DNA from: Ignavibacteriales bacterium
GTDB lineage: Bacteria > Bacillota > Sulfobacillia > JABLXB01
DNA length: 64,000 nucleotides
Reading direction: 5' to 3'
NCBI GenBank assembly: GCA_050260105.1
Contig: JBLNBR010000013.1
Location: 50,129-114,128 of the forward strand
The notes beneath the pieces are model-generated. The model saw only the letters and a list, made by a program, of their open reading frames with translations. It did no database searches and had not been told where the DNA came from. The position numbers and the translations under genes were made by a program. Of this stretch, positions 18,880 to 64,000 are shown piece after piece (within the stretch, counting starts at the first letter, position 1; every line of letters begins with the position of its first letter).

Positions 18880-19055
18880 TCCCGCCTGTACGAACATTAG
18901 AGCTGCAGACACTAACTGAAGAGCCTTCACTACTCCGAGCCAGCAGCCCGTATGGGTGGGTCCACCAGCCGCGGGAACTGGCCGAGGCGGAGCCGGGTGG
19001 CTTCGCCGAGGGCGAGCGGGAAACCGCTCTGCCTCCCGTGTTCGGAAAGGAGCCT
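18880..19055 (+). promoter_or_regulatory. Structured 5' leader of the molybdopterin operon: candidate Moco-riboswitch-like element with SD sequestration
   Basis: About 170-nt GC-rich leader after a TTGACA at 18869. Perfect GNRA hairpin GAGCGG-GAAA-CCGCTC, repeated CCGAG elements, and a CCUCCC anti-SD 10 nt upstream of the GGAAAGGAG SD of the first operon gene. The class assignment is not verified. Confidence 0.35.
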
Positions 19056-19322
19056 GTGGAATCATGGGCGCTCTCTGACGCGCAGGGGGCGCCCTCAGTA
19101 TTCGCTGCGACTATCGCTAAGACATGTGAGGTGGGCCGGTTGTCAACGATCGAGGACAGGATCATTGAAGCGGTCAAGTCGGCGGCCAGGGATGGGAGGC
19201 TGCCCTGCAAGGAGGCCTTTGGATTGGCTGCCGCCCTGGGGGTTGCGCCGGCTCTGGTGGGCCGCGCCGCCGATGTTCTCGGCGTGAAGATCAGCGGCTG
19301 CCAGCTCGGTTGTTTCAAGTGA
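19038..19322 (+). CDS. Small Cys-containing hypothetical protein, first gene of the molybdopterin cluster
   Basis: 94-aa ORF whose likely true start is the in-frame GTG at 19056 behind the GGAAAGGAG SD. Ends LPCKEAFGLAAALGVAPALVGRAADVLGVKISGCQLGCFK, 14 nt before moeA. Family not recognised. Confidence 0.5.
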   Translation: MFGKEPVESWALSDAQGAPSVFAATIAKTCEVGRLSTIEDRIIEAVKSAARDGRLPCKEAFGLAAALGVAPALVGRAADVLGVKISGCQLGCFK

Positions 19323-19335
19323 GAGGGGTGTCCGT

Positions 19336-20577
19336 TTGCTTCAGATTGTCCCTGTCCGGGAGGCAGTGCAGCATGTTTGCGGAATAATTCCTCGCGGCGC
19401 ATGTTCGCGGCGCAGCGCGCCGGTTCGCTCCGCCTTGGGTCTGGTGCTCAGCAGAGATGTTGTTGCGGCCGGGGATCTGCCACCGTACCCGAGGTCGACT
19501 GTGGATGGGTTTGCGGTCAGAGCGACGGACACGTACGGGGCCAGCGAGAGCATGCCCGCATTCCTCGACCTTTCGGGGGAAGTCGCGATGGGATCGCTGC
19601 CGGAGGCGCCCCTGGCGGCGGGGTGCGCGGTCCGGATATCGACGGGCGGGGCGCTGCCCGCCGGCGCCGACGCGGTGGCGATGCTGGAGTACTGTGAGGA
19701 ACCCGGCGACGGTACTGTCGCGGTGGGTTACGCGGTCGGCCCAGGCGAGAACGTCGTTCGCAGGGGCGAGGATGTTGCGGCGGGGACCACACTGCTCACT
19801 GACGGTCACAGGCTCCGGCCCCAGGACCTGGGCGCCCTCGAGGGTCTGGGCTTCACCGGGGTGGAGGTGTACGGGAAACCGCGTGTGGGAGTGATTTCGA
19901 CCGGGGACGAAGTGGTCGAGGCCTCCGTCCAGCCGGCGCCGGGACAGATCAGGGACGTGAACGGGGCTGCCATCTGCGCGTCTCTCGAACGTGACGGCCT
20001 GGCGCCGGAGTTTCTCGGTGTGGTTCCCGACGACCGCGCCCGGCTGGAGGATTCCATCAGGAGGGCATTGCGGTTTGACGCCGTGGTGGTTTCCGGGGGG
20101 AGTTCCGCGGGGACGAGGGATATGGTCGCGTCGGTGTTCGATTCGCTGGGCAGGCCGGGGGTCGTGGTTCACGGCCTGGCGCTGCGCCCGGGCAAGCCGA
20201 CGATCATGGCGGTACTGGATGGTAAGTTCGCCGCCGGCCTCCCCGGGCACCCATCGTCGGCGCTCGTCGCCTACGAGGCCGCGATCAGGCCGGTACTCCG
20301 GAGGGTCGCAGGGGAGGTCCCCCAGGAAGGCGCGGGGGTCATGGCGGGAATACCAATCAAGGCGCGGTGTTCCAGGAGCATATCGTCCAGGCCGGGCAGG
20401 GAGGAGTTCATTCGCTGTTCGCTGAGATGGGACGGCGACGAGGTCTGGGCTGACCCGGTACTGGGGAAATCCGGACTCATTTCGACCATGGTCAGGGCGC
20501 AGGCATTCATCCATGTTCCCCTTGACAGCGACGGGGCCGGCGCGGGTTCCCCGGTGGACGTCTACCTGTTCGGCTGA
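19336..20577 (+). CDS. moeA: Molybdopterin molybdenum/tungsten transferase MoeA
   Basis: TTG start after a GAGAGGGG RBS. MoeA N-terminal, MPT-binding (VVVSGGSSAGTRD) and C-terminal domains. Confidence 0.85.
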   Translation: MLQIVPVREAVQHVCGIIPRGACSRRSAPVRSALGLVLSRDVVAAGDLPPYPRSTVDGFAVRATDTYGASESMPAFLDLSGEVAMGSLPEAPLAAGCAVRISTGGALPAGADAVAMLEYCEEPGDGTVAVGYAVGPGENVVRRGEDVAAGTTLLTDGHRLRPQDLGALEGLGFTGVEVYGKPRVGVISTGDEVVEASVQPAPGQIRDVNGAAICASLERDGLAPEFLGVVPDDRARLEDSIRRALRFDAVVVSGGSSAGTRDMVASVFDSLGRPGVVVHGLALRPGKPTIMAVLDGKFAAGLPGHPSSALVAYEAAIRPVLRRVAGEVPQEGAGVMAGIPIKARCSRSISSRPGREEFIRCSLRWDGDEVWADPVLGKSGLISTMVRAQAFIHVPLDSDGAGAGSPVDVYLFG

Positions 20578-20591
20578 ATACTGGAGGTCTG

Positions 20592-22604
20592 GTGTTGAGC
20601 GGAAGTCCGGGAGTGAGAGAGGTATACCTGAGCACTATCCCGTGGAATGAGGCGCTCGAGCGATGGCTGGAGACGGTCGAGGCCGGCAGGGCCGGCGTTC
20701 CGGCAGAGGACGTGCCCGCTGTCGAGGCCCTGGGGAGGATCCTGTCCGGCCCCGTCCATGCGCGGCGTTCGTCTCCCCATTTCAACGCGGCGGCCATGGA
20801 CGGGATCGCTACGAGGGCGGCGCTTACGTCGGGCGCCTCGGAGACCTCGCCTGCGCGGCTGAGGTTGGGGCCGGGCGGCCCCGGCGGCGTCGACCCGGTT
20901 GGTGGCGTTGACCTGGTTGGCGGCGTTGACCTGGTTGGTGGCGTCGACGCGGTCGAGGTCGACACGGGCGACCCACTCCCGCGTGGCTGTGACTGCGTGA
21001 TAATGGCCGAGGATCTGAACTACGTCGACGGGGCTTCCGCCGTCGAGGTGATTGAACCGGCCGTACCCTGGCAACACGTCAGGCAGATTGGGGAGGACAT
21101 AGTCGCGACGGAGATGCTGTTCCCATCGGGGCGGGTGCTGAGACCCGAGGACCTCGGGGCCTTGCTTGCCTCGGGGAACACCGTGGTGAGGGTGAGGAAG
21201 AGGCCGGTGGTAGCGATAATCCCCACCGGCACTGAGATCGTCCCCGCTGAGGGGGAGTTGGCCCCCGGCGAAATCCCCGAATTCAACTCGGCCGTGCTCT
21301 CGGGGCTGATCAGGCAGTGGGGCGGGGAAGCCAGTGTGTTTCCCGTATGCCCCGACGACAGGGGCGTGATTGCCGCCGCCGTGCGGAGGGCGTCGGCGTC
21401 AGCGGATGTTGTGGTGTTGATAGCGGGATCATCTGCAGGACGAGAAGACTTCACCGCCCAGGTCCTGTCCGGCGCGGGCAGGGTCGTGGCGCACGGGGTT
21501 GCGATCAAGCCCGGCAAGCCCGTGTTGCTTGGGATCGCTCACGACAAACCCGCGATCGGGTTGCCCGGGTATCCCGTGTCTTGCTACCTCACGGCGAATA
21601 TGTTCCTGAAGCCGCTCTTGCACAGGCTGCAGGGGCTTCCGGTTCCCTCGGCCGCGAGGGTCAAGGCGTTGCTCTCCCGCAGGGCGGTTTCCCAGGCGGG
21701 GGTTGACGAGTACGTACGGGTGAAGCTGGGGAGCGTTGGTGAGCGGCTCGTCGCCACCCCGATTGCGAGGGGCGCGGGACTCATAACCTCTCTGGTCCGC
21801 GCCGACGGGATCATGTTGATACCGCGATTCTCAGAAGGGTTCGAGGAGGGCTCGGAGGTCGAAGTCGACCTGCTCAGATCGATCGAGGAAGTACGTAATT
21901 CCGTCGTCATCATCGGAAGTCACGACGTGGCCCTGGACCTGCTCGGAGGGATGTTGTCCGCCCGCCGTCCCGGCTACTCCGTGTCGTCCGCCCACACCGG
22001 CAGCATGGGGGGCTTAATGGCGCTCAAGAAGGGCGAGGCGCACGCGGCGGGCACCCACCTGCTCGACCCCGAAAATGGCGATTATAACGTCTCCTATGTG
22101 AGGCGGGTCATGCCCGGCAGGGCGGTGAGCCTGGTGACGCTCGCCCACCGCCGGCAGGGGTTCATCGTGCGCACGGGGAACCCCAAGGGCATCCGCGGCT
22201 TCGCTGATCTCGCACGGGCGGACGTATCGTTCGTGAACAGGCAACGGGGGGCCGGGACAAGACTGCTGCTCGACTACCATCTCAAGATGGAGGGGATCGA
22301 CCCGCACCGGGTGCACGGATACGCCAGGGAGGAGTTCACCCACATGGCGGTCGCCGCGGCGGTCGCCGGGGGTACGGCGGACGCGGGGCTGGGGATACTG
22401 GCCGCCGCCAGAGCCCTGGGACTCGACTTCATTCCCGTGGGCGAAGAAAGATACGAACTTGCCATTCCGGCGGAGCACCTGGATTCTCCCCCGGTGCGCA
22501 AGATGCTCGAAGTGGTAAATGACCCCGAGTTTAAGAAGGCCGTGGAGTCTCTTGGAGGTTACGATACCCGGGAAACCGGTCGCGAAAGGGAAGTGTCGTC
22601 GTGA
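20592..22604 (+). CDS. MoeA paralog fused to a C-terminal periplasmic-binding-protein-like (PBP-like) domain
   Basis: GTG start with a TGGAGGT RBS. N-terminal 400 aa is MoeA-like (GSSAGREDF, GVAIKPGKPVLLG). C-terminal about 250 aa (IIGSHDVALDLLGGML...GAGTRLLLDYHL...) resembles the PBP-like domain seen in MoeA-PBP fusion proteins. Contains an in-frame 3 x 15-nt tandem repeat (VGGVDL) at about 20896-20945. Confidence 0.75.
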   Translation: MLSGSPGVREVYLSTIPWNEALERWLETVEAGRAGVPAEDVPAVEALGRILSGPVHARRSSPHFNAAAMDGIATRAALTSGASETSPARLRLGPGGPGGVDPVGGVDLVGGVDLVGGVDAVEVDTGDPLPRGCDCVIMAEDLNYVDGASAVEVIEPAVPWQHVRQIGEDIVATEMLFPSGRVLRPEDLGALLASGNTVVRVRKRPVVAIIPTGTEIVPAEGELAPGEIPEFNSAVLSGLIRQWGGEASVFPVCPDDRGVIAAAVRRASASADVVVLIAGSSAGREDFTAQVLSGAGRVVAHGVAIKPGKPVLLGIAHDKPAIGLPGYPVSCYLTANMFLKPLLHRLQGLPVPSAARVKALLSRRAVSQAGVDEYVRVKLGSVGERLVATPIARGAGLITSLVRADGIMLIPRFSEGFEEGSEVEVDLLRSIEEVRNSVVIIGSHDVALDLLGGMLSARRPGYSVSSAHTGSMGGLMALKKGEAHAAGTHLLDPENGDYNVSYVRRVMPGRAVSLVTLAHRRQGFIVRTGNPKGIRGFADLARADVSFVNRQRGAGTRLLLDYHLKMEGIDPHRVHGYAREEFTHMAVAAAVAGGTADAGLGILAAARALGLDFIPVGEERYELAIPAEHLDSPPVRKMLEVVNDPEFKKAVESLGGYDTRETGREREVSS

Positions 22605-23593
22605 AGGACAGGTTCGGTAGGAGCCTGACATATCTGAGGGTATCGGTTACGGACCGCTGCAACATGCGATGCGTCTACTGCATGCCTGGGGGCGGCGTGC
22701 CCCTGGTTTCCCACGACGATCTACTGTCGTTCGAGGAGATCGAGAGGGTCGTCCGCGCCGGCGTCGGGCTCGGGATCCGGGCTGTCAGGCTCACAGGCGG
22801 AGAGCCGCTCATGCGGAGGGGCATCGTCGATCTGGTGAAGCGGCTCGCGTCGATAGAGGACTTGGAGGACCTGTCCATGACGACGAACGCCACCCGGCTC
22901 AGTATCCTTGCCCCCGCGCTGAAGGCGGCCGGGTTGCGGCGGGTGAACGTCAGCCTGGACAGCCTGGATCCGGGGACGTTCGCCGCCATCACCCGCGGCG
23001 GCGAGATCGGCTCGGTGATGAGGGGCATAGATGCGGCCCTCGCTAGTGGTCTCACCCCGGTCAAGATAAACTGTGTCCCACTGCGGGGTCTTAATGACTG
23101 CGAGATCCCCGCCCTGCTGGAGTTCATACGCAACCGCCCCGTGCACCTGCGGTTCATCGAGCTCATGCCGGTGGGGTGGAACGACGCGTGGTTCCAGCAG
23201 AGGTTCATTCCGGCCGACGAAGTCAGGGCGATGGTCGAAAGGGTTGTCTCCGCCGGGGGCGCACGCACGATTCCGTCCACCGTCGTGGACGGGCGCGGAC
23301 CGGCGACCTACCTCGCGATGGAGGGGTATCTCGGGACTGTCGGGTTCATCTCGGCCATAACCGGTCATTTCTGCGCGAGGTGCACCAGGATGAGGCTGAC
23401 GTCCACGGGGACACTGAGCCCGTGCCTCGCGTCGAGCGTGGAGGTGGACCTCCGGGCGCCCCTGCGCGCGGGCTGCGACGATGCGGAGCTCGAGCGCCTT
23501 TTCGCGGAGGCCGTGAGCCTGAAGCCGCTGGGGCACGAAATGGAGTGCGCGGCGGGCCTCGACGGCCGGCTGATGTCGAAAATAGGCGGCTAG
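22601..23593 (+). CDS. moaA: GTP 3',8-cyclase (radical SAM) MoaA
   Basis: GTGA overlap with the upstream gene. CNMRCVYC radical-SAM cluster motif and full-length MoaA similarity including the C-terminal cluster Cys residues. Confidence 0.9.
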
Positions 23594-23594
23594 G

Positions 23595-24119
23595 ATGCTC
23601 GGGGAAGGGGGTGGCTACTTGTCAGAAGGCGAATGTGACGGGTTCTCTCACCTGGATCCCCACGGGAAGGCTATCATGGTGAACGTGGGCGGAAAGGACG
23701 AGACGGTGCGCAAGGCCGTAGCGAGGGGCGAGGTGTTGATGTCGCCCGAGACATTGCGCCGGTTGAAGGAGGGCGCGGCGCCGAAGGGGGACGTGCTGGC
23801 CGTGGCTCGCGTGGCGGGCATAATGGCGGCCAAGAATACACCACACCTGATCCCGCTCTGCCACCCGATCCAGATTAGCGCAGTCTCCGTGGAGTTCACG
23901 TTTCCGGAGGACCGCCCCGCCGTGGAGATTGAGGTTGCCGTCGAGTGCACAGGCAGGACGGGAGTGGAAATGGAGGCCCTGACCGGGGTCTCGGTCGCCG
24001 CTCTCACCATATACGACATGTGCAAGTCGCTGGATAGGAGCATGATCATTGGTGACATCCGGTTGATGTTCAAGTCCGGCGGCAGGAGCGGGACATTTGT
24101 GAGACAGGATCAACCTTGA
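23595..24119 (+). CDS. moaC: Cyclic pyranopterin monophosphate synthase MoaC
   Basis: MoaC motifs ([21 protein letters not shown]). The true start may be the TTG at 23619 behind a GGGAAGGGGGTGG RBS. Confidence 0.85.
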
Positions 24120-24179
24120 CAGGCGGGTTTATGGGGGTATGGATCGGTCGTGGAGCACGAGGGTAGCGGGATAAGCAGG

Positions 24180-24707
24180 ATGGTGAAGCACAGGATAAGG
24201 TATGGGATATTGACGGCCAGCGACTCGGGGGCCGCCGGAGAACGCCGCGACCTCTCGGGCGAAGCCATCCAGGAAGTGATCCGGGCGTCGGGGGGCGAGG
24301 TGGCGCGTTACACGATCGTCGCCGACGAGGAGGAAGTGATCGCGCGCGAACTCCGCGATATGGCCGATAACCTGGGCATCGACGTGATTCTGACCACGGG
24401 GGGCACCGGTCTCAGCCCGCGGGATCATACCCCGGACGCCACCTATGCTGTGATCGACAGAGAGGTGCCCGGCATTGCGGAAGCCATGCGGCAGGAGGGA
24501 CTGAAGCACATACCCCATGCGATGCTTTCGCGACAGGCGGCGGGCGTACGCGGGGGGAGCCTCATAATCAACATGCCTGGAAGCCCGAGGGCCGTGCGCG
24601 AGTGCCTGGCCGTCGTGATGCCGGCGATCCCTCACGCCGTCGAGGTTCTGCGCGGCGAAGCCCGCGATTGCGCGCGCCTCCGCGACAGTCAGGAGAAGGG
24701 GCCTTAG
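24180..24707 (+). CDS. mog: Molybdopterin adenylyltransferase MoaB/Mog family
   Basis: ATG at MVKHRIRYGILTASD. ILTTGGTGLSPRD motif of the MoaB/Mog fold. Confidence 0.8.
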   Translation: MVKHRIRYGILTASDSGAAGERRDLSGEAIQEVIRASGGEVARYTIVADEEEVIARELRDMADNLGIDVILTTGGTGLSPRDHTPDATYAVIDREVPGIAEAMRQEGLKHIPHAMLSRQAAGVRGGSLIINMPGSPRAVRECLAVVMPAIPHAVEVLRGEARDCARLRDSQEKGP

Positions 24708-48927: not shown

Positions 48928-50520
48928 CTAGAGGGACTGACCGGTTACGTCCCGCCGGATTCCCGGTTTCGGCATGTAGCCTTCACTCTGCAGTGCTTCG
49001 AGCGCCTCCGAGTATTTCGACCGGTCCACTATGAGATGCCTCGGCCCTATCTCGCCAAGAACGAATGGCTGCATCCTCTTCGACGCCTTGATCTGGTTCG
49101 CCAATTCCTCCGTATCGCAATGCAGGACCAGGGCATCTACGAACTCGACCCTCCCGTAACCCTTCGACCATTCCTCTATGGAATAGGACACGTTCTGCGG
49201 TATATCGTTCTTGCTGTGCCGCCTCAGGAACGCCATTATGGACTGGGAGCTCATGCCCGATGAGAGCGCGCGATACGTGGACTGGCGCGTGATCTTGTAG
49301 ATGAGCATCTGATCGGGCTTGACCAGGTCGGCGAGTTGCTCGACCTTCCAGAGTATCGAAGGCTCGATGTTCGCGGGGACCAGCATCTCGAACGTCCCCT
49401 GCAGGAAGAACGAGTCCTCGAGCGGGACATCGTTGAACGCCTCCTCAGGGGAGGAAACCGGCCTGCCCGTGACCAGTGAGGCGAGTACCCGCCCCGGTGC
49501 GGTGAGCCTCAGGGCCGGACCGGCAGCGGTATCGATTCTCGCAAGCACCCCTGCGTAGGAGAGCATCCTGATCGCTTTCCAGAGTCTAGTCTCGAGGCCG
49601 TGCCAGGAATGTTCCAGGCTCAGGTATTCCATCTCCTCCAGGAGCGAGTTGAAGGAGACCCACCGGCCTTCAGGGACGTGGTCCATGATGGCGAGCATCG
49701 TCTGGACGTCCGGATCCGGCTGCACCCACTCTTCGAAGAGGGAGGAGAACACGTCCATCGCCTTCGAGGGCGCGGGCACGACCACCCACTCCTCGACCTT
49801 GGGTGACACCTGTATCTCGCGCTGTTCGGTTTCGGTTACCAGCCCGTGCCTCTTGCAGTAATTGATGATGAACGCGAGGTGCAGCGGGTGCACTGCCTGG
49901 AACGACTCGGCCTCGTCCGGCAGTTCGTCGGGCAGGCCGAGGGACGAGATGATGTCCCTCTGGGATCTCCTGTAGATCGTCCCGCCCTGGGCCATCTTGA
50001 CCTGGTTCTTCTTCAGATACGAAAGGAACAGGTGGATATGCCTCGTCGGCACGATGGGTTCGGGGTCCGTCCCCCTCACGGTGACGTCCTGCGCGACAAT
50101 GTGGTTGAGAATCGAGGGCATGAGCACGCGGACCACCGGGGCGCGCAAATCACCGGGTATGAAGTATATCTGCCTGTAATTCTCCCGCCCGGTGTATACG
50201 AGTCCCGCCCTGACCAGCGTGTCCAGGACCTTTGCGCCGTTTCTCCGCCACTTCCTCGTCAGCTCGTTGAGTTTCTGATGACACTTCTCGACAACGATGC
50301 CCCTGCCCCCACCACAGAGGGCCACCATCTTCAGGGCCGTGAGCTCCTCCTCAGTCAAGGAAGACACGACGTGCGAGAGGTAGGTGACCTCCTTGATGCG
50401 GCCGGGAAGCCACCCCAGCAGATCCTGTGGTACGGACCTGCCCTCGAAACCGAAATCCCTGGCGATCCTCAACACGTGATTCGGAGGCAGGCGCCTCAGG
50501 CATTCAGTCAGATCCATCAT
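48928..50520 (-). CDS. XPB-associated conserved protein (helicase-associated partner of bacterial XPB/ERCC3 homologs)
   Basis: 530-aa ORF immediately downstream of, and overlapping (ATGA), the XPB helicase gene. No catalytic motif recognised by eye. The arrangement parallels the partner genes found beside bacterial and archaeal XPB. Confidence 0.55.
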   Translation of the reverse strand: MMDLTECLRRLPPNHVLRIARDFGFEGRSVPQDLLGWLPGRIKEVTYLSHVVSSLTEEELTALKMVALCGGGRGIVVEKCHQKLNELTRKWRRNGAKVLDTLVRAGLVYTGRENYRQIYFIPGDLRAPVVRVLMPSILNHIVAQDVTVRGTDPEPIVPTRHIHLFLSYLKKNQVKMAQGGTIYRRSQRDIISSLGLPDELPDEAESFQAVHPLHLAFIINYCKRHGLVTETEQREIQVSPKVEEWVVVPAPSKAMDVFSSLFEEWVQPDPDVQTMLAIMDHVPEGRWVSFNSLLEEMEYLSLEHSWHGLETRLWKAIRMLSYAGVLARIDTAAGPALRLTAPGRVLASLVTGRPVSSPEEAFNDVPLEDSFFLQGTFEMLVPANIEPSILWKVEQLADLVKPDQMLIYKITRQSTYRALSSGMSSQSIMAFLRRHSKNDIPQNVSYSIEEWSKGYGRVEFVDALVLHCDTEELANQIKASKRMQPFVLGEIGPRHLIVDRSKYSEALEALQSEGYMPKPGIRRDVTGQSL

Positions 50521-58258: not shown

Positions 58259-59725
58259 ATGCCTGAATCAGCAAGCCCTGCATTCGAGCCGGTAATCGGC
58301 CTGGAGGTCCACGTGGAATTGAACACCAGGAGCAAGATGTTCTGCTCCTGCCCCACGACGTTTGGGGCGGCACCGAATTCACAGGTATGCCCGGTTTGTC
58401 TTGGTATGCCGGGATCGTTGCCCGTTCTCAACGAGGAAGTCGTCGAACTGGCTGTCAAGGCGGCCCTGGCGTTGAATTGCCGGATCGAGCCGTTCAGCCA
58501 GTTCCACCGGAAGAACTACTTCTACCCGGACCTGCCCAAGGCGTACCAGATTTCGCAGTATGACTACCCGCTCGCCACTCACGGGTACGTGGAAATCGAG
58601 GTGGACGGCGGCAAGAAGAGGATCGGGATAAAGCGCCTCCACATGGAGGATGATGCGGGCAAACTCCTGCACGAAGGGGCCATCGACCTCGCCGCGTCGT
58701 CACTGGTGGACTACAACAGGTGCGGGGTTCCCCTGATCGAGATCGTTTCCGAACCCGACATAGCATCACCCGAGGAGGCCAGGGATTACCTGCTCGCGCT
58801 GAAGAGCATCCTGCAGTACACGGGCGTTTCCGACTGCAAGATGGAGGAAGGGTCCCTCCGGGTTGATGCGAACGTCTCCGTCAGGCCGGCCGGCTCGAAG
58901 GCGTTCGGGACGCGCACCGAGCTGAAGAACATCGGCTCATTCAAGGCCGTCGCGCGGGGCCTCCAATACGAAATCGAGCGGCAGATCGAGGTCATTCGCC
59001 AGGGCGGGCAGGTCGTCCAGGAAACCAGGCATTGGGATGAACCGCGGGGAATGACGGTGTCGCTCAGGGGCAAGGAAGAGGCGCAGGACTACAGGTATTT
59101 CCCTGACCCCGACCTCGTGCCGCTCCGGCCGAAGGCCAAGTGGGTGGAGGCGGTACGGCGGACGCTCCCTGAACTGCCGGAAGCGAGGAAACGCAGGTTT
59201 ATTGCGGAGTACGGCATTCCGGAGTACGATGCGGGTGTCTTGACCGCGTCCCCGAAGATGGCGGATTTCTACGAGCAGTGCGTGGCCCTCTACGGCCCCG
59301 GTGAGGGTCGCCCCAAGACGGTATCCAACTGGGTCATGGGCGAACTGGCGCGGTACCTGAACGCGAACGGCCTGGATATCGAGGAGGCGCGTGTTACCCC
59401 CCGCCACATCGTCGAGATCATCAATCTCATAGACGCCGGTTCCATCAGCGGCAAGATCGCGAAGTCCATGTTCGATGAGATGTGCGACAGCGGACAACTG
59501 CCCGGTGAACTCGTGAAGCGGAAGGGCCTTGTCCAGATATCCGACGAGACGGAAATCGTCTCGCTGGTCCGCAAGGCCGTCGAGGAGAACCCCAAGGTAG
59601 TGCAGGATTACCGGGCCGGCAAGACCGCCGCCCTAGGGTTCTTCGTGGGCCAGGTGATGAAGGCCACGAAGGGCAAGGCGAACCCCGCCCTCGTGAACAA
59701 GGTGCTGAAAGACCTACTCGGCTGA
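58259..59725 (+). CDS. gatB: Glu-tRNA(Gln) amidotransferase subunit B
   Basis: ATG at [23 protein letters not shown] with a GGGGAGGAG RBS. Full GatB similarity including the C-terminal YqeY-like domain. Confidence 0.9.
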
Positions 59726-59733
59726 CGTTTCCG

Positions 59734-59762
59734 TTGACTGTAGTGCTGTTGAGTGCTATAGT
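59734..59762 (+). promoter_or_regulatory. Sigma-A type promoter driving the long leader of the ferredoxin-AOR operon
   Basis: TTGACT, 17-nt spacer, TATAGT, beginning 9 nt after the gatB stop. Confidence 0.55.
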
Positions 59763-59769
59763 CGAGTAA

Positions 59770-60111
59770 AACCATGTTGGGCGATGACAGGGAATAGTAC
59801 GTGCGAAGGCGGGGATTCAGCGAGCCGGAATAGTGTGAGCCGGCGCCTGCGCGCATACGGAATGGGCCCTGGAGCCGCGGCACGAAAGGGCGACCCGCCC
59901 CGTAGGCGCCGCCGGGACTCCCGCCGTTAAAGGGGAGACGGTATCAGGATGGGTCCGCGAGCCGGTAGCGACGGCCGGCCTGTCCAGTACCATCAGAGAC
60001 CGGCAAGGGCCGAAAGGCCGTTCCGGAGTAGGGTGGCACCACGAGCGGAGACGCCCGTCCCTTTCAGGGGCGGGTGTTCTTGTCATTTCTGGGCGTCAGG
60101 AGGGAATCGGA
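59770..60111 (+). promoter_or_regulatory. About 340-nt highly structured 5' leader with terminator/anti-terminator potential (candidate riboswitch; Moco/Wco class suspected but unverified)
   Basis: No credible ORF. Multiple GNRA hairpins (GGCC-GAAA-GGCC at about 60007-60020; GCACGAAAGGGC) and long GC-rich helices. Ends in an attenuator hairpin CCCGUCCC-UUUCA-GGGGCGGG plus a U-rich tract (60054-60090) immediately before the AGGAGGG RBS of the downstream gene. Confidence 0.45.
60054..60090 (+). terminator. Leader attenuator (intrinsic terminator) upstream of the ferredoxin-AOR operon
   Basis: 8-bp GC stem with one G-U pair, loop UUUCA, followed by UGUUCUUGUCAUUUCU. Confidence 0.5.
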
Positions 60112-60834
60112 GTGTACGACCTGAGAGTCGTAGTTGATAGTGTCCGGGGTTCTTGCGGAATGCCCATGAAAGTAGGGGACTATTTCGAAGTGAGGGGCGG
60201 CCGCATCTCGATCCCCGAAGGTAAACACGTGTGCCTGTGGGCGCTGCAAAGCCTGATGCCGTTACTTCCCGCAAAGCAGAGAGACCTGGGCGACCCGGGG
60301 GACTGGCTGCCCGCTGTGCGGTACGTTTCCTGTCCAGATCCGCACGGAATGGTCATCTACCGGATAGACAGGATACCTCCGTCCGGCGCGCCGGCCCACG
60401 CTTCCACGCGGCTGAGGGTTGACGCCTCGTCCTGCTCCGGGTGCCGCTCGTGCGAACTCGCGTGCTCGTTCTGGCGCAGCGGTGCTTTTGACCCCTCCGT
60501 CTCCCGGATCCGGGTACAGAAGGACGAACGGCAGGGGTCGGATATCCCGAGGGTATGCAGGCAGTGCAATAAGCCTTCGTGCGCGGGGGCCTGCGCGGAG
60601 GGTGCTCTCAGACAAGACCCCGTCACGCGCGCCATAACGGTATCCCCCGAGAGGTGTACGGGGTGTGGCAAGTGCGCTGACGCGTGCCCGTTCGGGGCCG
60701 TCTTCTTTCATCCCGTCACCCGGAAACCGCTCATCTGCGACCTGTGCGGGGGAGAGCCGCAGTGCATAGAGCGGTGTGCGACAGGGGCGCTCTCGGCATC
60801 GACGCGCACGCTGAGGGGAGGCGATCTCTCGTGA
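60112..60834 (+). CDS. Ferredoxin-domain protein: conserved N-terminal domain of unknown function plus a 2x[4Fe-4S] domain
   Basis: GTG start after AGGAGGG. C-terminal Cys clusters CSGCRSCELAC, CRQCNKPSCAGAC, CTGCGKCADAC and CDLCGG..C. Likely the electron carrier for the downstream AOR. Confidence 0.7.
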   Translation: MYDLRVVVDSVRGSCGMPMKVGDYFEVRGGRISIPEGKHVCLWALQSLMPLLPAKQRDLGDPGDWLPAVRYVSCPDPHGMVIYRIDRIPPSGAPAHASTRLRVDASSCSGCRSCELACSFWRSGAFDPSVSRIRVQKDERQGSDIPRVCRQCNKPSCAGACAEGALRQDPVTRAITVSPERCTGCGKCADACPFGAVFFHPVTRKPLICDLCGGEPQCIERCATGALSASTRTLRGGDLS

Positions 60835-62723
60835 CCGGATACGCGGGCAGTATTCTTCGCATAGACCTGGAACGGAAGTCCTGGAAGGTTGAACGGCTGG
60901 ACCGCGAAATGGCCTTCGGCTACATCGGGGGGCGGGGGTTCAACGCTTGCAGGATGTTTGACGAGATACCCCGGGGAATCGACCCGTTATCGCCGGACAA
61001 CAAGCTGTTTCTGGCCACTGGTCCCCTTGCGGGGACGCTCATCCCCGGCTCCAGGTTCAACGCGAGCGCCAAGTCGCCGCAGACGGGCATCCTCGGGGAC
61101 TCAAACGCCGGAGGGTTTTTCGGGCCGGAGATGAAATTCGCCGGCTATGATCAGATAATCATCGAGGGCAGGTGCAGCGAATTATCCTACCTGGTCATAA
61201 CCCCTGACGGAGCACAGGTGAGGCCGGCCGCGCACCTTGCCGGCCTTGACGTATGGGAGACTCACGATTCCATCAGGCGGGAGCTCGGCGACCCCAGGGT
61301 TCAGGTGGCGTGCGCCGGCCCAGCGGCGGAAGCGGGAGTGAGGTTCTCCGGTATATTCACGAACCTTGCGAGACCGGCTGCCCGCACAGGCATGGGACTC
61401 GTCATGGCGTCGAAGAACCTGAAGGCCGTGGCGGTGAGGGGCACGAGACCCATTCTGGTGTCGGATCGTGAGGCGTTTCTTGACGTCCTGCGCGAAATCG
61501 ACAAGGCCATCTACTCGCACGAGCAGTACGCCCCGAGATGCGCGATGGGCACTACCAGGCTTCTTTCAGGGCTTAACCAGCTCGGGTGCCTCGCTACCAG
61601 GCACTTTAGAACCGGGCGGTTTGAGATGGGCGACGAGGTGAGTGGGGAGCGCCTCGCCGAGACGTGGAGGACGAAGGGCAAGGCGTGCTTCGCCTGCACG
61701 ATCCCGTGCAGCCGGTTCTTTGAAGTCAAGGACGGCCCCTTCGCGGGGCTCCGTAGTGAAGGCCCGGAATTTGAGGGCCTTGCGGGGTTCTCATCGAGGG
61801 TGGGCAACGGAGACCTCGGCGTGACCCTCAAGGCGATCGACCTCTGCAACAAGTACGGGATGGACGTGATATCGGTCTCGGAGTGCATCTCGTTTACGAT
61901 GGAATGTGCTGAAGAGGGGATCATCTCGGAAAAAGAGGCCGACGGCCTCGACCTCCGGTGGGGCAATAGGGACACGATCCTGGGCCTTATCCAGAAGATC
62001 GCCCGGCGCGAGGGTTTTGGAGACACACTCGCGGACGGCGTCCGCCCGGCCGCCGCGAGGATCGGCAGGGGGAGCGAACGGCTTGCCATGCACGTAAAGG
62101 GGCTTGAAGTGTTCCAGGCCGACCCGCGCGGCCTCAAGGCATATGCCCTGGGCTTCGCGGTGTCCAGCAGGGGTGGTGACCATCTCCGGTCCGAGCCTTC
62201 TTTCGAGTTTTCGGAGGACAGGGAGGAGGCTATCCGCAGGTACGGTGTGCCGGAGGCGGCGTTCAGACTCGAGTACAAGGGGAAGGGACGCGTGGTGAAG
62301 CACTATGAGGAATGGAGCGCGCTCGCGGACTGCCTCGAGGTGTGCAAGAACACGGTGGTCAACATGGAGGTCATTCCCTTCGACCTGGCGGCGCGCCTTC
62401 TCAAAGCAGCTACGGGGCTGGAATTCGACGCTGGCGACGTGCAGAGGGCCTGCGAAAGGGTCCTAAACCTCGAGAAATGCTTCAACGTCAGGGAGGGACT
62501 GACCCGGGCCGACGACACACTCCCCGCGAGGTTTCTGACCGAACCCCTTGGCCCGGAGTGCGGGCCGTCGTCGGGCAGTGTCGTGGAACTTGATCCGATG
62601 CTGGATGAGTACTACAAGTCAAGGGGATGGGACGTTCGCACGGGATTGCCGACGCAGAGGAAGCTCACCGGACTGGGGCTGGAACGCGCCGTCGCAGAAC
62701 TCAAGACGCGGCTCCCGGAGTGA
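60831..62723 (+). CDS. aor: Aldehyde:ferredoxin oxidoreductase family (tungsten-bispyranopterin enzyme)
   Basis: GTGA overlap start ([14 protein letters not shown]...). AOR N-terminal domain and cofactor-binding motifs, including the 4Fe-4S ligand Cys in the CFACTIPC loop. Confidence 0.85.
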
Positions 62724-62732
62724 GACGGGAAC

Positions 62733-62766
62733 GGGGGCGGGCCACGATCCCGCCCCGTTTTCATTT
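62733..62766 (+). terminator. Intrinsic terminator of the AOR operon (also the apparent group II intron target site)
   Basis: GGGGGCGGG-ccacgatc-CCGCCCCG followed by TTTTCATTT. The intron's GTGCG starts directly after the T-tract. Confidence 0.65.
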
Positions 62767-64000
62767 GTGCGCCCGGCAGGGCGCGTTCACTAGTGGGTGA
62801 GAGTCCCACACAGGCCCGACAGGGGGAACTGTTAGCCGGACGGCAAGGGTGTCCACTGTGAGGTGGAATCTGGAGGAAGCCGCAGGCAAAGCGCTGGCCT
62901 GACGAACAGGAATCGCATACGAGGCGGCCACGCTGGGTGAGGAGGCAAATATCTTCAAAGCCCGATACCTGTACGGAAAGCGTGGACGTAGATGCGGCGG
63001 GCATAAGCGTGAAGGTGGACGCGCAATACCCGGGGAGGCCTGCCAGCTGGCCAAGGGCTATGGTCGTCGAGAGGCGGCGAGATAGGCTGGCAGGAGTCAG
63101 CAGAGGGCGTAGTAAGTCCATCGACCGGACCGAAGGCCCGAACATGAAGCATGGGATGGGGGACTTGAATTCCGATGGCGACAGGAGACGCAGACAGTAT
63201 GGCTGAGATGCCCGAATCCCGCCCTGAGGGTAGCGGACGGAATCCGCGAGAGCAAGGGATGGGTGCGTCAAGCGCCACGGCAATGGGAGGGACCTCCCAA
63301 CCGGAAGCGGAGCGGATGATGGAAGCGGTGGTCGAACGCGAGAACATGATAGCGGCGTGGAAGCGAGTGAAGGCGAACAAAGGGGCGGCGGGGGTAGACG
63401 GGATGACCGTGGACCAACTGACGCCATACCTTCGCGAGCACTGGCCGCGAATCAGGGAAGAACTGTTGGCGGGGCGGTGCGTACCGTCACCCGTACGGGG
63501 TGTAGAGATACCGAAGCCCGGCGGGAGAGGGATGCGGAAGTTAGGCATACCGACGGTGTTGGACCGGCTGATACAACAGGCGCTGCAGCAGGTTTTGACG
63601 CCCATCTTTGACCCCGGGTTTTCGGAATCGAGTTACGGATTCCGGCCTGGCCGTGGCGCGCACCAAGCGATACTCAAGGCGCGGTCATACGTAGCGGAGG
63701 GTAGGCGCTGGGTGGTCGATCTCGATCTGGCTCAATTCTTTGACCGAGTGAACCACGACATCCTGATGGCGAGGGTGGCGCGGAAGGTCAAGGACAAGCG
63801 GGTGTTACGGCTCATCCGCCGGTATCTTCAGGCGGGGATGATGGAAGGGGGTCTAGAGTCGGCGCGCCGAGAGGGCACACCGCAGGGCGGGCCGTTATCG
63901 CCACTTCTATCGAATATCCTGCTTGACGATCTTGACAAGGAACTGGAGAGGCGAGGGCATGCGTTCTGCCGGTACGCCGATGATGCGAACGTGTACGTAC
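62767..64000 (+). mobile_element. Group II intron (5' part; continues beyond the window end), bacterial terminator-targeting (class C-like) insertion
   Basis: Begins GTGCGCCCGGCAGGGCG, which matches the GUGYG + CCnnnAGGG 5' consensus of group II introns (compare Ll.LtrB GUGCGCCCAGAUAGGGUG). About 430 nt of structured RNA precedes the intron-encoded RT ORF. It sits immediately 3' of an intrinsic terminator. Confidence 0.75.
63199..64000 (+). CDS. Group II intron-encoded reverse transcriptase/maturase (partial; runs off the window)
   Basis: ATG at about 63199. RT domain 0-5 motifs: [75 protein letters not shown], and the YADDANV (YADD) catalytic box. Absent from the ORF track because there is no stop within the window. 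Confidence 0.85.

Follow-up and report, generated by a model that had tools for sequence, protein, structure and literature searches.

An operon encoding a ferredoxin-type protein and a tungsten-type aldehyde:ferredoxin oxidoreductase (AOR) in an Ignavibacteriales bacterium is preceded by a long RNA leader that is very probably a T-box riboswitch. The operon lies in a 64,000-nt stretch of genomic DNA (assembly GCA_050260105.1, contig JBLNBR010000013.1, forward-strand positions 50,129 to 114,128), which is referred to here as the window and within which coordinates are given. Region 59770-60095 is assigned, with a probability of about 0.92, as the leader of a transcriptional T-box riboswitch specific for tRNA-Trp, an assignment that draws on the leader sequence, its alignment to a known RNA family and its orthologues. 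The RNA itself belongs to a known class with a textbook mechanism and is an ordinary member of its family. An initial annotation of this DNA had described the region as a cis-acting, transcription-attenuating riboswitch leader of the ferredoxin-AOR operon, with the molybdenum/tungsten cofactor (Moco/Wco) class as the prime suspect; the attenuating leader stands, and the class is replaced by the T-box (RF00230). Since the leader is a T-box with a Trp specifier, the ligand that it senses would be uncharged tRNA-Trp and not a pterin cofactor.

Identification and Anatomy of the T-box Leader

A search of region 59650-60200 against Rfam, run with E-value thresholds, gave RF00230 (T-box) as the only significant match, at 59775-60065 on the plus strand and over model positions 1-219 of 219 (55.5 bits, E-value 1.9e-11). 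The comparison with Rfam thus identified a family, though not RF01055, the Moco/Wco model toward which the initial annotation had pointed and which went unmatched.

The Rfam alignment places the elements of a T-box one after another on the plus strand. Stem I (59779-59878), which is also recognized by a Stem I model of our own and by covariation, has at its base a K-turn (GA motif) composed of GCGAUGA at 59781-59787 and CUGGAGC at 59869-59875, and the helices flanking this K-turn covary. The 5′ side of the specifier loop (AAUAGUA, 59793-59799) is followed by the AG bulge (AGCGAG, 59819-59824) and the distal loop (AAUAGUGUGAG, 59829-59839), the latter two of which align to the Rfam consensus AGAGA / GGUGaaA with high posterior probability and are within the range of the relatives. 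The 3′ side of the specifier loop (59860-59866) comprises the GAA of the S-turn, the triplet UGG (Trp) at 59863-59865 and a purine, G, at 59866. The Stem II and Stem IIA/B region occupies 59876-59929; the Stem II hairpin (within 59876-59912, with the GNRA-type tip GCACGAAAGGGC at 59880-59891) and the F-box (CCGUUA, 59924-59929) were found, and the Stem IIA/B pseudoknot is only putative here. Between the F-box and Stem III lies a GC-rich insertion of ~70 nt relative to the Rfam model (59930-59999), which holds a long hairpin bounded by GGUAUC at 59940-59945 and AGUACC at 59986-59991; comparable GGUAUC...GUACC hairpins are present in four orthologous leaders (L001, L116, L150, and L161). Stem III (CCGG...GGCC-GAAA-GGCC...CCGG, 60000-60026) stands directly upstream of the T-box sequence. 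The GNRA-capped hairpins pointed out in the initial annotation are indeed present, and they are the tips of Stem II and Stem III, the latter with GGCC-GAAA-GGCC at ~60008-60019. The T-box sequence (AGUAGGGUGGCACCACG, 60027-60043) includes the conserved 14-nt sequence AGGGUGGCACCACG within 60030-60043, together with its UGGC bulge.

The antiterminator helix (60027-60062, plus strand) contains a 7-nt bulge, UGGCACC, with UGGC at 60034-60037, and its 3′ strand is CGUCCCU at 60056-60062. This canonical antiterminator has an energy of -10.3 kcal/mol and is the minimum free energy (MFE) structure of its segment. The intrinsic terminator (60050-60090, plus strand) is a 13-bp GC-rich hairpin (60050-60078) followed by a broken U-tract, CUUGUCAUUUCU; its stand-alone energy is -22.8 kcal/mol, it is the sole strong terminator-like site between the promoter and the gene, and it ends ~20 nt upstream of the ribosome-binding site (RBS), as the initial annotation had noted apart from the break in the U-tract. 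Because the 5′ arm of the terminator contains CGUCCCU, which is also the 3′ strand of the antiterminator, the two structures are mutually exclusive. The difference between their energies makes termination the default, such that the antiterminator needs stabilization from outside.

The signals for expression bracket these elements. A sigma-70-like promoter at 59734-59762 on the plus strand (-35 TTGACT at 59734-59739, a 17-nt spacer with a TG extension, and -10 TATAGT at 59757-59762), which had been proposed from the sequence, matches 10 of the 12 consensus positions in addition to the TG extension, against 0.3 such sites expected in shuffled sequences, and its TTGAC and TATA hexamers line up across four orthologous leaders (the window and three relatives). 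The gatB gene ends at 59725 (Pfam and NCBIfam), and the promoter-like site begins 9 nt further on. No terminator is located in this short interval between the gatB stop and the promoter (59723-59734), so that polymerase reading through from gatCAB could likewise run into the T-box leader and be subject to its control. The interval from promoter to gene is ~340 nt, with a GC content of 66-68%, and the earlier statement that it has no plausible open reading frame (ORF) is borne out: the only two ORFs, of 48 and 62 aa, are both rich in Arg, Gly and Pro, a Trp codon occurs once in one of them and nowhere in the other, tandem Trp codons are absent from both, and they look like the chance frames that GC-rich DNA would give. 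Downstream, the RBS AGGAGGG (60098-60104) and a GTG start codon (60112-60114; feature 60098-60114, plus strand) open a reading frame whose N-terminus, MYDLRVVVD, is conserved in homologues.

Conservation and Covariation in Orthologous Leaders

With the AOR protein as query, species-representative genomes yielded 80 loci, and metagenomes yielded 80 further ones when queried with an alignment of the fusion protein that the first gene encodes (loci are designated by L numbers). At three of the closest genome loci, a T-box leader is found at the equivalent position before the same TIGR04076-ferredoxin gene, and all three score above the Rfam gathering score: L001, a metagenome-assembled genome of Bacillota (AOR identity 78%, 98.2 bits), L002 (76%, 120.4 bits), and L009 (61%, 104.5 bits). 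The leaders L161 (115.8 bits), L093 (111.1 bits), and L084 (103.2 bits) are likewise above it. The GAAUGG motif, the T-box sequence and the terminator align among the leaders of the window, L001, L002, and L009. The suggestion in the initial annotation that the leader might be an unrecognized cis-regulatory RNA has to be given up, as the leader aligns end to end with RF00230 and orthologous leaders pass the gathering score.

A covariance model of Stem I (R1) was built from 12 leaders, the window leader among them, and an RNAalifold consensus of the 12 (MAFFT/RNAalifold, independent of any covariance-model fit) showed compensatory changes in 17 of 18 pairs. Model R1 scores the window Stem I at 81.8 bits, a value obtained with the window sequence in the training set, and finds 26 Stem I elements, the window included, on the coding strand upstream of the ferredoxin/AOR module; matches beyond the training set are L084, L088, L093-L096, L113, L114, L116, and L161. 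Leaders with variants of the T-box sequence (GGGUGGCAACACG in L084-L096 and GGGGUGGCAUACC in L116) escaped a strict regular expression but were recovered by the Stem I model. Without exception, the 26 leaders have UGG as their specifier, with GAA or GAG on its 5′ side and A, G, or C on its 3′ side. Across the 25 distinct Stem I sequences, 93.2% of cells are paired and both sides change in 16 of 18 pairs, in an alignment that was fitted to the model and so favors the structure; this covariation score was reached by none of 500 shuffles, and sliding the partners by 1-3 columns lowers pairing to 31-50%. The covarying structure sought in orthologous leaders is thus present and fits the T-box family, so that both an Rfam match and covariation accompany the leader, though for a family other than the one first proposed. 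When 13 leaders were folded individually, all 13 formed the terminator with the downstream arm present, and most formed the canonical bulged antiterminator once this arm was removed.

Two loci carry damaged versions of the element. In L113 (234-400) and L114 (733-900), a terminator-like hairpin comes almost immediately after a Stem I with UGG, and there is no Stem II, Stem III or T-box sequence; these leaders, which precede the same fusion gene, are apparently deleted or decayed T-boxes.

The bulge of the antiterminator offers a further indication of specificity. Bacterial tRNA-Trp carries G73. The bulge is UGGC or UGGU in all of the Trp leaders, and because its last base is C or U, G is the only discriminator base able to pair with both; the bulges therefore appear to fit bacterial tRNA-Trp. 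Five of the loci (L084, L088, L094, L095, and L096) additionally have, on the minus strand upstream of the fusion gene, divergent T-boxes with a short Stem I and a UAC (Tyr) specifier. The divergent Tyr T-boxes in L084-L096 carry a UGGU bulge, which fits A73 of tRNA-Tyr, and they drive an NhaC-family transporter, after which a gene for a metallo-beta-lactamase-fold protein comes next in L084. The association of Tyr T-boxes with NhaC is already known (PMC2494555), and the divergent Tyr T-boxes agree with it.

Proposed Mechanism of Regulation

Leader anatomy, taken together with established T-box biology, suggests the following model. Transcription would begin from the promoter at 59734-59762, and Stem I would fold and present UGG 59863-59865 for pairing with the CCA anticodon of tRNA-Trp, while the distal AG bulge and loop of Stem I would dock onto the tRNA elbow. 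If the bound tRNA-Trp is uncharged, its free 3′ end would pair with UGGC 60034-60037 in the antiterminator bulge, and this pairing would stabilize the otherwise weak antiterminator (60027-60062) and allow RNA polymerase to read through into the genes for the TIGR04076-ferredoxin protein and AOR. With charged tRNA, by contrast, formation of the stronger terminator (60050-60090) would bring transcription to a stop. Read-through in response to uncharged tRNA implies that the operon would be switched on by tryptophan shortage.

Evaluation of Alternative Interpretations

Several observations weigh against the T-box assignment. The RF00230 score of 55.5 bits is below the curated gathering score of 93, and a scan of the whole window at gathering thresholds reported nothing in the leader region; the call therefore rests on the E-value, the hallmark motifs and the orthologues. 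The gathering threshold is a curated score cut-off and not a structural feature, and the shortfall is probably due to the GC-rich insertion, with a composition-bias correction of 16.6 bits going along with it. The folding energy of the whole leader (z = -1.23) is unexceptional at such a GC content, and the MFE fold of the entire leader did not reproduce the T-box architecture; support for the structure comes from the family model and covariation, not from thermodynamics. The U-tract of the terminator is interrupted (GUUCUUGUCAUUUCU). Neither the window nor any of the 32 loci scanned yielded a tRNA-Trp gene, and for the discriminator match the base is therefore taken from general knowledge of this tRNA. 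AOR is an unusual target for a T-box, a T-box is present in just 19 of the 54 metagenomic module loci with at least 450 nt upstream, and the operon of Moorella thermoacetica (L162) is without one.

Some of these points would suit a decayed, non-functional remnant of a T-box, with an operon that is constitutively expressed or constitutively terminated. The low score, the insertion and the imperfect U-tract are compatible with decay, and damaged relatives exist, as L113 and L114 retain Stem I without the T-box sequence. In the window leader, however, all functional elements are intact and in register, and promoter, terminator and RBS are conserved. Moreover, the GC-rich, insertion-bearing leaders L150, L148, and L116 are also below the Rfam cut-off with all motifs kept, and L001, the closest orthologue, carries the same insertion yet passes. 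Decay is therefore improbable.

A functional T-box might still be of another specificity, if the specifier were read one or two bases downstream as GGG or GGC (Gly) or as GCC (Ala). UGG in the window is followed by GCC, so that a shifted loop register could indeed read other triplets. Among the orthologues, however, UGG is invariant and the bases after it vary (GAAUGGA-CCC, GAAUGGC-CUU, and GAAUGGG-UUC), which leaves GGG, GGC and GCC unconserved, and the covarying helix fixes the register, with GAA-NNN-R directly before the helix. The UGGC bulge would also mismatch the discriminator bases of the other candidates, namely U73 of tRNA-Gly and A73 of tRNA-Ala, which are taken from general knowledge. 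A shifted specifier is thus very unlikely.

The Moco/Wco riboswitch, by which AOR expression would be matched to cofactor supply, has biological appeal, since the downstream AOR needs a tungsto- or molybdopterin cofactor and Moco riboswitches precede some AOR operons, such as fdx-aorA-moaD of Clostridium scindens (PMC3766115 supplement). Nevertheless, even with the threshold relaxed to E≤10, RF01055 is unmatched in 59650-60200, and the same model detects a genuine Moco/Wco aptamer elsewhere in the window, at 18923-19065 on the plus strand (46.6 bits against a gathering score of 36). T-box elements account for the whole leader, and twenty T-box-less loci of the same gene module have no Moco match. 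This reading retains hardly any credibility. The genes that come after the Moco riboswitch at 18923-19065 (19336-24704) are moeA, a moeA-PBP_like fusion, moaA, moaC and a MoCF_biosynth (moaB-like) gene. As a Moco riboswitch stands before the cofactor genes and RF01055 is unmatched before AOR, cofactor synthesis appears to be Moco-regulated in this organism and AOR does not.

Finally, a ribosome-mediated leader-peptide attenuator or a new class of metabolite-binding riboswitch, which the two small ORFs and strong hairpins without an obvious known consensus might suggest, has next to no chance of being correct, because there are no tandem Trp codons, the ORFs look like GC-rich chance frames and the RNA is fully explained by the known T-box family.

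The Regulated Genes and the End of the Operon

The T-box leader precedes two genes on the plus strand. The first (60112-60834), called a ferredoxin gene in the initial annotation, encodes a TIGR04076 domain (aa 1-88; NCBIfam 69 bits against a cut-off of 33) fused to a 4Fe-4S polyferredoxin of the AorA/WOR5 type. Its AlphaFold model has a mean predicted local distance difference test score (pLDDT) of 89.9, and the ferredoxin part superposes on the small subunits of tungsten-dependent AORs (W-AORs; 9mqx_G, 8c0z_C, and 6x1o_B) with template modeling (TM) scores of 0.74-0.80, normalized to the target. The second gene (60831-62723) encodes an AOR-family protein (Pfam AFOR_N and AFOR_C), whose closest solved structures by sequence are 9mqx_D, 1aor_A, and 8c0z_A (E-values 1e-99 to 4e-126). 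The two genes, described earlier as translationally coupled, do overlap, the start of the AOR gene sharing GTGA at 60831-60834 with the stop of the first gene. In the public annotation, the identical protein (P0001) is 224 aa long and covers 93% of the 240-aa ORF from GTG 60112, and this shorter call probably starts at an internal Met; GTG 60112 is the better start because of its RBS and the conserved N-terminus.

Three Cys residues (C15, C41, and C74) of the TIGR04076 domain (60112-60396; structure predicted with a pLDDT of 90) are invariant. The predicted fold of this domain weakly resembles the XdhC/CoxI-type proteins 3on5_A (E-value 0.1, TM score 0.55) and 2we7_A, which we take to be molybdenum-cofactor insertion factors. 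On the basis of this weak resemblance between a predicted fold and known proteins, TIGR04076 may be a cofactor-maturation domain for AOR.

The operon ends in an intrinsic terminator at ~62735-62766 on the plus strand, read from the sequence as GGGGCGGG-ccacgat-CCCGCCCC then UUUUCAUUU. Right after it there is a group II intron on the plus strand, with GUGCG at 62768 and Rfam matches to domains D1-D4 at 62852-63138; its reverse-transcriptase ORF starts from 63175 and runs off the end of the window, and terminator and intron together take up the region 62735-64000. Bacterial class C introns typically insert just 3′ of a terminator stem.

Gene Neighborhoods in Relatives

Relatives frequently have, after the AOR gene, a small MoaD/ThiS-like ORF that ends in GG and, behind it, an amino-acid-type transporter of varying family (NhaC-like, an APC permease, or a Liv-type or Opp-type binding protein); this transporter linkage is seen with and without the T-box, Moorella thermoacetica included. 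The locus of the latter organism (L162, Moorella/Neomoorella thermoacetica, GCA_001875245.1) comprises the TIGR04076-ferredoxin fusion, AOR, a 93-aa MoaD-like ORF and an APC amino-acid permease, and a tRNA-Asn gene and a promoter-like site are located directly upstream of the operon.

TIGR04076 is unfused in L148, L150 and ~15 T-box-less loci, where it occurs as a tandem-duplicated protein, usually encoded after the AOR gene. This separate protein is ~226-229 aa in length (L148 6481-7170 and L150 5873-6553; also L076, L128, and L135-L154). The pattern of fusion and fission ties TIGR04076 to the AOR module. In L150 and L136, trpE comes next after the gene for the separate protein; in L148, the latter gene overlaps the trpS start. 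An IOR-alpha-like gene lies directly upstream in L150 and L143. Two loci have a second Trp (UGG) T-box near the ferredoxin-AOR operon: that of L001 (8727-8978, minus strand) drives a YfcC-like carrier and an Xaa-Pro-dipeptidase-like amidohydrolase, and that of L161 (4959-5227, minus strand) drives a Liv-type ABC transporter and a class-III aminotransferase.

The T-box is not found in all relatives with the module. In the Desulforamulus/Peptococcaceae loci L003-L006 (AOR identity 66-67%) and in L007, L010, L016, and L076, no T-box or other Rfam element was detected at E≤0.01, and the twenty further T-box-less module loci had no Rfam matches at the gathering threshold, Moco included. Hence, the RNA is lineage-specific, and no alternative riboswitch takes over where it is absent.

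Comparison with Known Systems

Transcriptional T-boxes are exemplified by those of Bacillus subtilis tyrS and glyQS, and Trp-specific T-boxes by those of the Lactococcus lactis trp operon and B. subtilis rtpA-ycbK. Like known T-boxes, the window leader has a Stem I with K-turn, specifier, AG bulge and distal loop, followed by Stem II, the F-box, Stem III, the 14-nt T-box with its UGGN bulge, and an antiterminator that competes with a terminator; like the known Trp T-boxes, it has UGG as its specifier. On the other hand, it departs from the norm of RF00230 by its GC-rich insertion and sub-gathering score, and its targets are a TIGR04076-polyferredoxin fusion and a tungsten-type AOR in place of an aminoacyl-tRNA synthetase, tryptophan biosynthesis genes or a transporter. 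Targets of Trp T-boxes are listed in PMC2494555 and in the supplements of PMC3766115. Neither "aor" nor "fdx" occurs among the T-box regulons tabulated for 93 genomes (PMC3766115, supplementary file 2), and the main text of PMC2494555 makes no mention of aldehyde, ferredoxin or oxidoreductase. Full-text searches of the literature for T-boxes or other riboswitches in connection with AOR, tungsten, ferredoxin oxidoreductase and tryptophan turned up nothing relevant, within an incomplete coverage of the T-box literature. Control of an AOR module by a Trp T-box is thus apparently unreported, although a prior description cannot be fully excluded.

The Moco/Wco riboswitch (RF01055) is likewise a 5′ attenuation leader that sometimes stands before AOR or cofactor genes, and it differs in its ligand, which is a pterin, as opposed to the tRNA expected for the window leader. 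With respect to the enzymes, the combination of AOR and polyferredoxin is like that of the known AOR complexes, namely AorABC of Aromatoleum aromaticum (8c0z), the electron-bifurcating W-AOR (9mqx), and WOR5 (6x1o) and AOR (1aor) of Pyrococcus furiosus. Unlike in these complexes, the small subunit encoded in the window has an additional N-terminal TIGR04076 domain, and no FAD/NAD subunit of the AorC type is encoded beside the window genes. No description of control of AOR complexes by tRNA-Trp was found in the literature searched.

Implications for AOR Function and Tryptophan Supply

For annotation, the window leader illustrates that a riboswitch ahead of a tungsten enzyme need not be one that senses the cofactor. 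T-boxes that are rich in GC and carry insertions escape detection at the Rfam gathering score, and this leader would consequently be passed over in a routine scan.

From the leader sequences, it may be inferred that the AOR module belongs to a tryptophan-shortage response or tryptophan-supply regulon in the bacteria that bear the T-box. The reading as tryptophan supply is suggested by the Trp T-boxes at ~25 loci, by co-transcription with amino-acid-type transporters and by the trpE, trpS and IOR-alpha-like neighbors at some loci. It is conceivable, if rather doubtful, that the TIGR04076/polyferredoxin/AOR module is an unrecognized part of tryptophan supply in anaerobic Bacillota and not a general aldehyde-detoxifying enzyme. 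It is tempting to speculate that AOR works on an imported indolic aldehyde or acid, one possibility being the interconversion of indole-3-acetaldehyde and indole-3-acetate. Equally speculatively, the module might feed very low-potential electrons to an IOR-like thiamine pyrophosphate enzyme that carboxylates an indole-acetyl unit to indolepyruvate, which is the direct precursor of tryptophan. Moorella thermoacetica (L162), a cultivable acetogen with the same module, is a possible experimental system.

A T-box specifier reports which amino acid the gene product helps to supply, and the physiological substrates of bacterial AORs are mostly unassigned. The conserved Trp specifier before one AOR subfamily, in conjunction with the fused or adjacent TIGR04076, the transporters and the occasional trpE, trpS and IOR-alpha neighbors, therefore provides a testable lead, namely that this subfamily may serve tryptophan acquisition.

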